A stretch of DNA of 64,000 bases from NCBI RefSeq assembly GCF_030384885.1, contig NZ_CP128613.1; one strand, 5' to 3'. The position numbers and the translations under genes were made by a program. The notes under the pieces were generated by a model. It was not told where the DNA came from. It worked only from the letters and a program-made list of their open reading frames with translations, and did no database searches. This document shows positions 290-38,610 of the stretch, in pieces (positions within the stretch are counted from its first letter, which is position 1; the number at the start of each line of letters is the position of its first letter). Origin of the DNA: Escherichia coli (GTDB taxonomy: Bacteria; Pseudomonadota; Gammaproteobacteria; Enterobacterales; Enterobacteriaceae).

Positions 290-440
290 AACTTTGCCTC
301 AGGCATTAGAAATAGCGCGTTATTGTACACGGATTAATCGCACTACAAAACAGGATCACAAACATCCTCCGCAAACAAGTATTGCAGAGTCCCTTTGTGA
401 TCGCTTTCACGGAGCATAAAAAGGGTTATCCAAAGGTCAT

Positions 441-523
441 TGCACCAATATGGTGCTTAATGTTTCCATTGAAGCACTATATTGGTGCAACATTCACATC
501 ATGGTGCAGCCCTTTTGCACGAT
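441..523. promoter_or_regulatory. NtrC (NRI) enhancer-like binding sites upstream of glnA
   Basis: TGCACCAATATGGTGCT at 441-457 and GCACTATATTGGTGCAA at 473-489 fit the dyad TGCACCA-N3-TGGTGCA; a weaker copy lies at about 501-523. Position upstream of the glnA sigma-54 promoter matches the known architecture. Confidence 0.7.
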
Positions 524-4939: not shown

Positions 4940-5060
4940 GCTCGTTGTTTATGCCGGATGCGGAGAAAGTCGTAGGCCTGATAAGACGCGACCAGCGTCG
5001 CATCAGGCATCATGCTCAGATGCCGGATGCAGCGTAAACGCCTTATCCGGCCTACAAAAG
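4940..5060. repeat. REP/BIME-type palindromic repeat cluster
   Basis: Repeated GCCGGATGCGG...CGCCTTATCCGGCCTAC and GCCTGATAAGACGCG...CGCATCAGGC units typical of enterobacterial REP elements. Confidence 0.6.
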
Positions 5061-6540: not shown

Positions 6541-6728
6541 GCTCACTCCTTCCGATGGCGTCTCTGGCGGCTACGGCGTACCGGCGGATGCCCGTTTCGG
6601 GTCATCAGCCGGTTGCGCAGCCACTTTTGTCGCCGCGACAACCGCTGTAGTTTAACGAATAACCACACCAGATAACATATAACCGGAAGGGTTATCAGCA
6701 GAACGGGAAGGCCCACGGCGGCAATCCG

Positions 6729-7238
6729 TTAGTTGCCCCGCAGCAGACGCATCATGTCTTCTTGCTTCTCGTCTTCTTCCTCTTCTTCGTCATCGTCATA
6801 AGAGAGGCCGAGTTTCTGCATCAACTCATCAATACGATCCAGTTTGGCATCCACCCAGGATTGCTCTTCGGCGCTCAGGGTTTCGCCTGCCTCCAGACGT
6901 TCCAGCAGCGCATCCAGACGCTCATCCGTTTCCAGTAACTCCAACTCCGCCTGCGGTGAAAGCATAGGTTTCTCACTCTTCGGTTTGTGCTGTTTGGTGA
7001 CTTTTTCAGTCACGCCCAATGGAATAGGGGTTTTACTGCCAATACGTGGATCTTTCGGTGCGTTCTGGCCTTTGCTGCCTGACGTGGTGTTACCGCCCGC
7101 TGCGCGGCTGCCCGGCGCATGACCACGACGTTTTTTCTGACGCTTACGGTCACGAGCTTCCTGATCCAGCTCCTCGCGTGTTTTTCGACGCGCTTTTGCA
7201 TGACCTTTGCTGCGTGAGTTTGAAGATGATGGTTTCAT
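6729..7238 (-). CDS. yihI: Der GTPase-activating protein YihI
   Basis: 169-aa basic/acidic low-complexity protein ([19 protein letters not shown]...[12 protein letters not shown]); start chosen at MKPSSS inside the longer track ORF. Confidence 0.9.
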
Positions 7239-7305
7239 AATGGTTCGTCTTTTAGCCGTTTTATTCAGTATAGATTTGCGGCGGAATCTAACAGAAAGCA
7301 AGCAA

Positions 7306-7549
7306 AGAAAAAAGGCGACAGATTACTCTGTCGCCTTTTTTCCTGACTCATAACCCTTAACGGGTCTTACAATCCTTGCAGGCCGCCAACACACCCTGTT
7401 TTTCCATTAGCCGGAACAATCCGTGTTGATTCCATTTCCGTTTAATTACGTCTCCGGACGTTTGTCTTCCTGACAATCCTCTGTCTTCGCCTCCTGGCGC
7501 TCCTGACCCTCATCCTGAGTCATTGTTCCTGTTAGCGTCCTCGCTCTAT
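7306..7549 (-). ncRNA. csrC: CsrC small RNA (CsrA-sequestering)
   Basis: Minus-strand sequence begins ATAGAGCGAGGACGCTAACAGGAACAATGACTCAGGATGAGGGTCAGGAGCGCCAGGAGG and carries many GGA/AGGA motifs; ends in a hairpin (AGGCGACAG / CTGTCGCCT, 7313-7336) plus U-run. Lies in the yihI-engB intergenic region. Confidence 0.8.
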
Positions 7550-7819
7550 GGGTGCTACTTTACGCCTTTGCTTTAAACAAACAATCAACCGCCATCAGTA
7601 TTTGCACATTTTCAGAGTTTTATATAAAAGCAATTAACTGATTTATATAGCTTATTTGACATGCATCGCAGAATTTTCTCTGCTATTTCGCATAAAGACT
7701 ATCGGCAATGTCTCACAAAGCGTATGGCTTTTACTTACAACGCTCACGCCGAAAAATCCGCCTTTTATTATGGTTCAGGTATAATCGCCGCAAAGCTTTG
7801 ACTGACGGAGACGACCGCT

Positions 7820-8452
7820 TTGACTAATTTGAATTATCAACAGACGCATTTTGTGATGAGTGCGCCTGATATTCGCCACCTACCTTCCGATACCGGAATT
7901 GAAGTGGCTTTTGCAGGCCGTTCCAACGCAGGTAAATCCAGCGCGCTGAACACGCTGACTAACCAGAAAAGCCTGGCGCGGACCTCAAAAACCCCAGGGC
8001 GCACCCAGCTTATCAACCTGTTTGAAGTGGCTGACGGCAAGCGTCTGGTTGACCTGCCCGGCTATGGCTACGCGGAAGTCCCGGAAGAGATGAAGCGCAA
8101 ATGGCAACGCGCGCTCGGCGAATACCTCGAAAAACGTCAGAGCCTGCAAGGCCTGGTGGTACTCATGGATATTCGCCATCCGTTGAAAGACCTCGATCAG
8201 CAGATGATTGAGTGGGCGGTAGACAGTAATATCGCCGTACTGGTGCTGCTGACCAAAGCGGACAAACTGGCAAGCGGCGCACGTAAAGCACAATTGAATA
8301 TGGTGCGTGAAGCAGTGCTGGCGTTTAACGGTGATGTGCAGGTTGAAACGTTCTCTTCGCTGAAGAAGCAAGGCGTGGACAAGCTGCGGCAGAAACTGGA
8401 TACCTGGTTTAGCGAGATGCAGCCTGTCGAAGAAACGCAGGACGGCGAATAA
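7820..8452 (+). CDS. engB: ribosome biogenesis GTP-binding protein EngB/YsxC (YihA)
   Basis: 210-aa ORF with P-loop GRSNAGKSS and the typical EngB fold; apparent TTG initiation at 7820 (track translation MTNLNYQQ), with an in-frame ATG alternative slightly downstream. Confidence 0.9.
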
Positions 8453-8577: not shown

Positions 8578-8686
8578 TAAAAAACGCCCCAGTCATTACT
8601 GACTGGGGCGGCTAAAATATTCAGCCAAATCCGATTACGTGAAGTAAAAGGTCTGAAAGATAGAACATCTTACCTCTGTACCCTAC
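8578..8686 (-). ncRNA. spf: Spot 42 small RNA
   Basis: Reverse complement reads GTAGGGTACAGAGGTAAGATGTTCTATCTTTCAGACCTTTTACTTCACG...GCCGCCCCAGTCAGTAATGACTGGGGCGTTTTTTA, the Spot 42 sequence with its terminator hairpin. Confidence 0.9.
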
Positions 8687-8833
8687 GCGACTAACTTTAC
8701 TCTTTTTTGTTCAGTTCAGAAAGCATTTTTTGTAATTTTTTTTCAGTTGTTGCATAGGAATTTCTAATAGCCATCACAAAACGTGACAGCTTATGTTGCT
8801 TACTTACGAAAAAAGGGCATGTTCAGGCGAATC

Positions 8834-17781: not shown

Positions 17782-17901
17782 ATGCCTGGCAGTTCCCTAC
17801 TCTCGCATGGGGAGACCCCACACTACCATCGGCGCTACGGCGTTTCACTTCTGAGTTCGGCATGGGGTCAGGTGGGACCACCGCGCTAAGGCCGCCAGGC
17901 A
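17782..17901 (-). rRNA. rrfA: 5S ribosomal RNA
   Basis: 120 nt; reverse complement reads TGCCTGGCGGC...GGAACTGCCAGGCAT, the enterobacterial 5S sequence. Confidence 0.97.
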
Positions 17902-17994
17902 AATTCTGTTTCATCAGACCGCTTCTGCGTTCTGATTTAATCTGTATCAGGCTGAAAATCTTCTCTCAATCCGCCAAAACACCTTCGGCGTTGT

Positions 17995-20899
<2,905 letters not shown>

Positions 20900-21082
20900 T
20901 CACAACCCGAAGATGTTTCTTGCGATTCATCATCGTGTTGCGAAAATTTGAGAGACTCACGAACAACTCTCGTTGTTCAGTGTTTCAATTTTCAGCTTGA
21001 TCCAGATTTTTAAAGAGCAAAACTTCGCAGTGAACCTTTGCAGGTACACTCTGAAGTATTTTTTATTTAATCACTACAGAGA

Positions 21083-21158
21083 TGGTGGAGCTATGCGGGA
21101 TCGAACCGCAGACCTCCTGCGTGCAAAGCAGGCGCTCTCCCAGCTGAGCTATAGCCCC
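21083..21158 (-). tRNA. alaT: tRNA-Ala (anticodon UGC)
   Basis: Reverse complement GGGGCTATAGCTCAGCTGGGAGAGCGCCTGCTTTGCACGCAGGAGGTCTGCGGTTCGATCCCGCATAGCTCCACCA, in the 16S-23S spacer. Confidence 0.97.
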
Positions 21159-21200
21159 ATAACATGTAGTTAAAACCTCTTCAAATTTGCGGTGCAAATT

Positions 21201-21277
<77 letters not shown>

Positions 21278-21345
21278 GTAGAGGTTTTACTGCTCATTTT
21301 CATCAGACAATCTGTGTGAGCACTGCAAAGCACAGTTCTTTAAGG

Positions 21346-22887
<1,542 letters not shown>

Positions 22888-36367: not shown

Positions 36368-38610
<2,243 letters not shown>

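Follow-up and report, generated by a model that had tools for sequence, protein, structure and literature searches.

The minus strand of the window, by which we mean the whole 64,000-nucleotide stretch of Escherichia coli DNA that was analysed, almost certainly carries at 7549..7304 the gene for the small RNA CsrC, activated by UvrY and terminated by a hairpin, with the neighbouring gene yihI transcribed from start sites of its own in the spacer between the two. Scanning the entire 64 kb with Rfam 15 at the gathering threshold (61 for RF00084, the CsrC family) gave a match at 7549..7296 (-) with a score of 277.9 bits and an E-value of 1.2e-87, which extends over the full length of the model (1-255 of 255) and reaches 8 nt past the annotated 3' end of csrC; in Rfam clan competition CsrC stays the best model at this position. 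The curated csrC of K-12 MG1655 (b4457, 246 nt, 4051036..4051281) aligns to 7549..7304 with 245 of the 246 positions identical. A first-pass annotation, made from the letters alone, had placed CsrC on the minus strand at 7306-7549 and had named a covariance-model search as the way to check it; the full-length match bears this out, and the ends mapped from K-12 show the placement to have been right within two bases. The sole difference to K-12 is at nucleotide 144, where the A of K-12 is replaced by U (window 7406), adjacent to a GGA and at a position that is variable across species. No functional effect of this substitution is expected, and from the single-nucleotide difference to K-12 we infer that the U144 allele would also bind CsrA.

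The surroundings of the gene are those of K-12. In the window the order is hemN, yihI, csrC, yihA/engB (divergent), spf and polA, the same as in K-12 (polA-spf-yihA-csrC-yihI-hemN) with the orientation reversed, and csrC is intergenic between yihA and yihI, where there is no credible ORF. A position next to yihA and yihI is a trait of the CsrC family (Kulkarni et al, 2006, PMC1488887), and csrC adjoins both genes at this locus. Of 5426 complete E. coli genomes, 5425 contain the 631-nt segment 7200..7830, and in 3948 of them its identity is at least 99%. CsrC at its expected locus is thus already known and biologically nothing new: it is a textbook component of the Csr system, and its identification here is correct but ordinary. 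The coordinates of the features discussed below are collected in Table 1.

Table 1. Features of the csrC locus and its flanks, in window coordinates.
Feature	Position	Strand	Basis
csrC (CsrC sRNA, 246 nt, +1 = 7549)	7304..7549	-	RF00084 match and identity to K-12 b4457
Putative csrC core promoter: -35 TTGTTT (7584..7579), 16-nt spacer, -10 TAAAGT (7562..7557)	7557..7584	-	Hexamers read from the sequence
UvrY (BarA-UvrY) inverted repeat TGTGAGACATTGCCGATA, -168..-151 of csrC	7700..7717	-	Exact match to the repeat in PMC4682653
Extra half-site TGTAAG	7734..7739	-	Exactly 16 bp upstream of the repeat, in agreement with PMC4682653
Thirteen conserved GGA motifs, presumed CsrA-binding sites	7375..7542	-	Density, Rfam structure, kept in at least 60 of 64 species
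First G of each of the 13 conserved GGA motifs	7540, 7529, 7515, 7503, 7494, 7479, 7470, 7455, 7439, 7433, 7422, 7405, 7375	-	csrC sequence
csrC intrinsic terminator: 18-bp stem, 4-nt loop, T6 (7313..7308)	7305..7344	-	Terminator scan; -27.7 kcal/mol, z -7.8
Conserved csrC-yihI spacer block TTTCTGTTAGATTCCGCCGCAAATCTATACTGAA, 34 nt, yihI core promoter region: TAGATT 7290..7285, start sites 7277 and 7265, TATACT 7272..7267	7264..7297	-	91% identity; PMC10469882 Table S5
yihI CDS, Der GTPase-activating protein, 169 aa, ATG 7238	6729..7238	-	PF04220 (3.5e-55); K-12 b3866; PGAP
yihA/engB promoter: TATAAT 7780-7785, start site 7792 (28 nt before the TTG start codon, EHEC Cappable-seq)	7780..7792	+	PMC10469882 Table S5
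yihA/engB CDS, divergent from csrC	7820..8452	+	ORF; PF01926; K-12 annotation
Spurious ORFs 6844..7122 and 7046..7240, antisense inside yihI	6844..7240	+	No Pfam match; absent from K-12 and PGAP annotation
Mechanical ORF over the yihI start and the csrC terminator	7207..7353	+	No Pfam match

The RNA was described in the first-pass annotation as rich in GGA motifs and as ending in a strong hairpin about 70 bp before the yihI start codon, and both statements hold. The 246 nt of csrC contain 14 GGA motifs, the highest density of the window: across the 64 kb, both strands included, 246-nt sliding windows contain 3.0 on average (sd 1.8), and 14 is reached only by those overlapping csrC. Mononucleotide shuffles of csrC average 7.8 GGA (sd 2.3, maximum 15), so that part of the excess must be attributed to base composition and part to the motif. 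Nine of the 14 motifs read AGGA, and one of these nine also reads AAGGA (ARGGA). Placed on the Rfam consensus structure, 11 of the 14 motifs are unpaired, six of them within hairpin loops and the other five within linkers, while the remaining three touch stems, one of them at the base of the terminator. This last motif, the fourteenth (7343), is poorly kept (36 of 64 species); over the 64 sequences the number of GGA motifs per CsrC homologue ranges from 12 to 17. Folded as a single sequence csrC gives -87.7 kcal/mol with a z-score of -6.2. The terminator hairpin is 92% identical across 58 non-Escherichia species, and the ATG of yihI lies 65 nt past the csrC 3' end and 69 nt past the T-run. The hairpin is also symmetric (A6-stem-loop-stem-T6), which is the form of a bidirectional terminator, and it could also halt antisense transcription from within yihI. 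One 3' end mapped by Term-seq, K-12 4051237 (window 7348, CsrC nt 202), classed as 'internal' to csrC and called not Rho-dependent (PMC7815308 supplement), falls in the unpaired stretch immediately 5' of the terminator stem; it plausibly marks a decay or processing intermediate, for which we infer a link to CsrD and RNase E.

Features by which CsrA-sequestering small RNAs can be recognised have been set out as an intergenic position, a high density of AGGA/ARGGA, a Rho-independent terminator, GGA motifs situated in loops or in free regions and, upstream, a conserved site of the UvrY/GacA type (Kulkarni et al, 2006, PMC1488887). All five of these sequence-level features are found at csrC here.

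Conservation was followed by an exact-pattern scan of species-representative genomes with an 18-mer from the most conserved hairpin, which returned 120 DNA stretches, 64 of them matching the csrC region and 63 analysed further. The 63 loci come from Escherichia, Salmonella, Citrobacter, Enterobacter, Klebsiella, Kosakonia, Pluralibacter, Leclercia, Trabulsiella, Superficieibacter, Silvania, Pseudescherichia and Pseudocitrobacter, and together with the window they provide 64 distinct CsrC sequences, in whose alignment the pairs of the Rfam structure were counted. The body of csrC is 75-78% identical across the 58 non-Escherichia species. In the 64 sequences 86.7% of the cells that the structure pairs hold standard pairs; sliding the 3' partners by 1-3 columns lowers this to 40-48%. 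Pairs changed on both sides occupy 75 cells, a number that none of 500 shuffles attained. Since the alignment was built from sequence and joins related species, these figures are to be read as supportive rather than as a formal test. Among the compensatory changes, helix 1 shows GC<->AU in 25 sequences, helix 5 UA<->CG in 16 and helix 6 CG<->AU in 16. Together with the kept GGA motifs these changes indicate, at the level of sequence comparison, selection on csrC as an RNA.

Upstream of the gene the first-pass annotation had noticed a TCTCACA near 7706-7716, which it rated as weak. The motif is present at 7711-7717 (+) and the low rating was not warranted, the motif being letter for letter the left half of the published 18-nt UvrY inverted repeat (PMC4682653). 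In E. coli this repeat lies inside the upstream ChIP-exo crosslinking region of csrC, and DNase I footprinting shows the upstream site to be the one that UvrY binds specifically (Zere et al, 2015, PMC4682653). Across the 58 non-Escherichia species conservation stands at 86% for the left half of the repeat, 65% for its right half and 85% for the extra TGTAAG half-site, whereas it is just 49% over the 114 nt that separate the repeat from the -35; at the upstream site the form TGTnAGA is conserved across species. In E. coli as well as in K. pneumoniae csrC has a listed 5'-triphosphate start (PMC3415461 supplement). The -35 and -10 hexamers of csrC in Table 1 are candidates, and GTAAAGT and TTGT near the start are near-invariant in 62 species. 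On the other side of the control region the promoter of yihA is conserved across species, on the opposite strand, as GATTATACC. The start of yihA given for K-12 in RegulonDB differs from that in EHEC, lying 220 nt upstream at about 7600 (PMC10469882 Table S5), and transcription from there would read through the csrC control region. A simple sigma-70 consensus scan called no promoter anywhere in 6700..7900, including the spacer between csrC and yihI; its silence is uninformative, since the promoters of csrC and yihA, which have published start sites, also went uncalled.

The way in which such an RNA works is well established. CsrA dimers bind GGA motifs displayed in short loops, the subject of reviews by Romeo and Babitzke, and CsrB and CsrC, with many GGA sites in hairpin loops and linkers, sequester CsrA and so relieve its control of target mRNAs. 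Transcription of both RNAs is activated by BarA-UvrY, and CsrD directs both to RNase E-dependent decay. The K-12 CsrC was reportedly found by Weilbacher and co-workers in 2003 to bind CsrA and to antagonise its activity, and work by Dubey and co-workers in 2005 is said to be among the sources for this mechanism. In the window, transcription of csrC would start at 7549 from a promoter of weak consensus, activated by the binding of phosphorylated UvrY, as known from the published work, to the inverted repeat at 7717..7700, and would stop at the 18-bp hairpin and T-run at 7344..7305. Each GGA motif of the RNA would mimic a CsrA-binding site, and CsrA would be titrated off its mRNA targets. A further 65 nt on, yihI would be initiated within the spacer, at 7277 as the main site and at 7265, with its -10 region in the conserved block.

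For K-12, RegulonDB 10.5 places the transcription start of yihI 39 nt before the start codon, and for EHEC EDL933 Cappable-seq places starts 39 and 27 nt before it (PMC10469882 Table S5). These sites map to 7277 (the main one, an A after a C, 27 nt past the csrC 3' end) and to 7265, both within the spacer and downstream of the csrC terminator. The convention by which the distances are counted was verified on the yihA row of the same table, where the 28 nt given for EHEC leads to 7792, exactly 7 nt after the perfect TATAAT at 7780-7785. For the start at 7277 the candidate -10 is the invariant TAGATT (7290..7285; -13..-8), which matches the consensus at four of six positions, and a 17-bp spacer from it would put the -35 on the T-run of the csrC terminator (7313..7308), where TTTTTT is a poor match. 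The 3' end of csrC and the promoter of yihI would therefore physically overlap, within some tens of bases. The arrangement is conserved across the Enterobacteriaceae: the distance from the T-run to the yihI ATG is 61-73 nt in all 63 of the species loci in which yihI was located. In Citrobacter a 5-nt deletion moves the T-run relative to TAGATT, and the overlap may be geometric rather than functional. For practical purposes a deletion or replacement of csrC should spare 7313..7264 to leave the expression of yihI undisturbed. An N-terminal extension of YihI from the in-frame TTG at 7301, giving a 190-aa ORF, was considered and rejected, the indels in the spacer not being multiples of three and the lengths varying.

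Within the spacer the block at 7297..7264 is 91% identical in the 58 non-Escherichia species, compared with 49% for neutral-looking intergenic DNA and 75-78% for the body of csrC itself, while the 25 nt preceding the yihI ATG are 67% conserved. Folding revealed no significant RNA structure in the block (z 0.14), and a structured RNA in the csrC-yihI spacer was rejected on this value; that the spacer is conserved yet without RNA structure points to a signal at the level of DNA. The hexamer TATACT (7272..7267) is 100% conserved in the same 58 species. As the main -10 of yihI, possibly of sigma-S type, it would predict a start at about 7260 with a 5' UTR of about 22 nt, which is at odds with the published starts at 7277 and 7265. 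These lie 5 nt upstream and 2 nt downstream of the hexamer, so that TATACT occupies +6..+11 of the main yihI transcript and fits as the -10 of neither. Possible roles for it are those of a pause element or of a promoter active under specific conditions. A by-eye comparison of the block with the consensus of sigma-32, sigma-28, sigma-54 and sigma-E promoters produced none that was convincing; the best partial resemblance was a sigma-32-like CTTGCTT-N14-CCGCAAAT, the -35 of which is lost in Citrobacter through the 5-nt deletion.

The conservation of the block and of TATACT, and the fixed spacing of 61-73 nt, are real; a coupling between csrC and yihI is speculation. It is a rather unlikely idea that the terminator of csrC and the promoter of yihI are deliberately overlapped and that the block holds a further control element of a kind not yet recognised. 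Were it true, the T-run at the yihI -35 would mean that transcription or termination of csrC occludes or modulates initiation at yihI, the Csr system would be linked to YihI, an activator of the Der GTPase involved in biogenesis of the 50S ribosomal subunit, and TATACT would be a sigma-dependent promoter-proximal pause element or an extra, condition-specific -10. Searches of the literature for a coupling of csrC and yihI, or for transcription of yihI (promoter, read-through, RpoS, Der/lag), found no paper, and data on the yihI start sites or on read-through were not found in SMRT-Cappable-seq, Cappable-seq 2016, the Rend-seq annotation or Conway 2014.

That any yihI promoter must lie within csrC or read through it, as the first-pass annotation had put it, is correct for one part of the promoter: the -35 and upstream portion would overlap the terminator. 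The start sites themselves are in the spacer, and being downstream of the terminator they make read-through unnecessary; the mapping of the yihI 5' end, named as a check and answered here by a published table, thus bears out only half of the claim. We consider it very unlikely that yihI lacks its own promoter and depends for expression on transcription running through the csrC terminator. The two genes are on the same strand and just 65 nt apart, an arrangement and spacing kept in the 63 species loci, and the consensus scan calls nothing in the spacer, all of which such an explanation would accommodate. It does not readily account for primary (capped, 5'-triphosphate) starts 39 and 27 nt before the ATG and past the terminator in two strains, for a terminator as strong as this one (18 bp, -27.7 kcal/mol, U6), or for a block around the start sites that is conserved beyond csrC itself. 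Read-through may still make a minor contribution to yihI.

The block might instead serve CsrC, as a 3' extension or as a processing or termination signal, and have no part in the transcription of yihI. The Rfam model does cover 8 nt past the annotated 3' end, and the block directly follows the terminator and is equally conserved. It lies, however, 7-40 nt past the annotated end of csrC, beyond the U-tract, it lacks significant structure as an RNA (z 0.14) and it contains both mapped start sites of yihI, while the sole Term-seq 3' end of csrC retrieved from the files searched, at nt 202, is upstream of it (PMC7815308 supplement). This makes a role in CsrC highly improbable, and a block belonging to the yihI promoter region is the reading we prefer.

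The view of the locus in automated annotation is a different one, and it is misleading. In NZ_CP023820, a genome annotated by RefSeq/PGAP that is identical over the 631-nt query, no csrC feature is annotated, and inside csrC, at what corresponds to 7357..7523 (-) of the window, there is a pseudogene labelled 'hypothetical protein; frameshifted; internal stop'; the label 'hypothetical protein' recurs under the match in 12 of the 12 genomes listed. The warning that csrC would be invisible to annotation based on ORFs is therefore fully justified, with a bogus pseudogene standing in its place. That the region is a decayed protein gene, as this pseudo-CDS in a 631-nt-identical genome and its recurrence in 12 of 12 genomes would have it, can be set aside with practical certainty, given that there is no minus-strand ORF of at least 40 aa at 7357..7523, that PGAP itself flags a frameshift and an internal stop, that the CsrC covariance model matches over its full length, that compensatory pair changes and kept GGA motifs mark selection at the RNA level, and that csrC is annotated in the curated K-12 record. 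With csrC dropped from PGAP/RefSeq annotation of E. coli, ORF-centred readings of the locus are bound to mislead. The short ORFs at 6844..7122 and 7046..7240, which the first-pass annotation had called probably spurious, exist as frames and match no Pfam family, the frame of yihI being the one that matches PF04220 (3.5e-55).

Several other RNAs were seen in the window. Spot 42 (spf) lies at 8578..8696 (-) between polA and yihA with an Rfam score of 122.8 bits; in the K-12 record spf also contains the annotation of a small protein, SpfP, and a UvrY ChIP-exo signal has been reported near spf (Zere et al, 2015, PMC4682653). Rfam matches were also found to the ES222 sRNA at 371..478 (-) with 133 bits and to naRNA4, a nucleoid-associated RNA, at 4975..5052 (-) with 81 bits, immediately downstream of hemN. 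A complete rRNA operon occupies 17784..22887 (-), with 16S, two spacer tRNAs, 23S and 5S, and a StyR-44 match at 20907..21015 immediately upstream of 23S; its position relative to csrC fits that of K-12 rrnA. A match to the Rfam 'Erse' sRNA (318 bits) at 38005..38256 (-) falls on the 3' end of an ORF of 216 aa, the stop of which overlaps the start of the next ORF of 546 aa. By position relative to K-12 these two ORFs look like ubiJ (yigP) and ubiB, in which case the 'Erse' sRNA would be inside coding sequence.

Compared with known systems, the closest counterpart is the CsrC of E. coli K-12 itself (b4457; RF00084, in clan CL00106 with CsrB/RsmB), which has the same ends, flanks, terminator, UvrY repeat and TGTAAG as are found here. 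The overlap of terminator and promoter is likewise of a kind met with in tandem bacterial genes, the T-run of the upstream terminator occupying the position of the downstream -35, although for csrC and yihI a functional coupling is only hypothetical. The larger E. coli paralogue CsrB (RF00018) is similarly a CsrA sponge with GGA motifs in loops, activated by UvrY at a far-upstream inverted repeat (PMC4682653), and differs from CsrC in its locus, at syd/yqcC, and in its length of about 360 nt. The inverted repeat of csrB is also nearly perfect (TGTGAGAGATCTCTTACA) and its activation dependent on IHF, whereas the csrC repeat is less symmetric and csrC has no requirement for IHF (PMC4682653).
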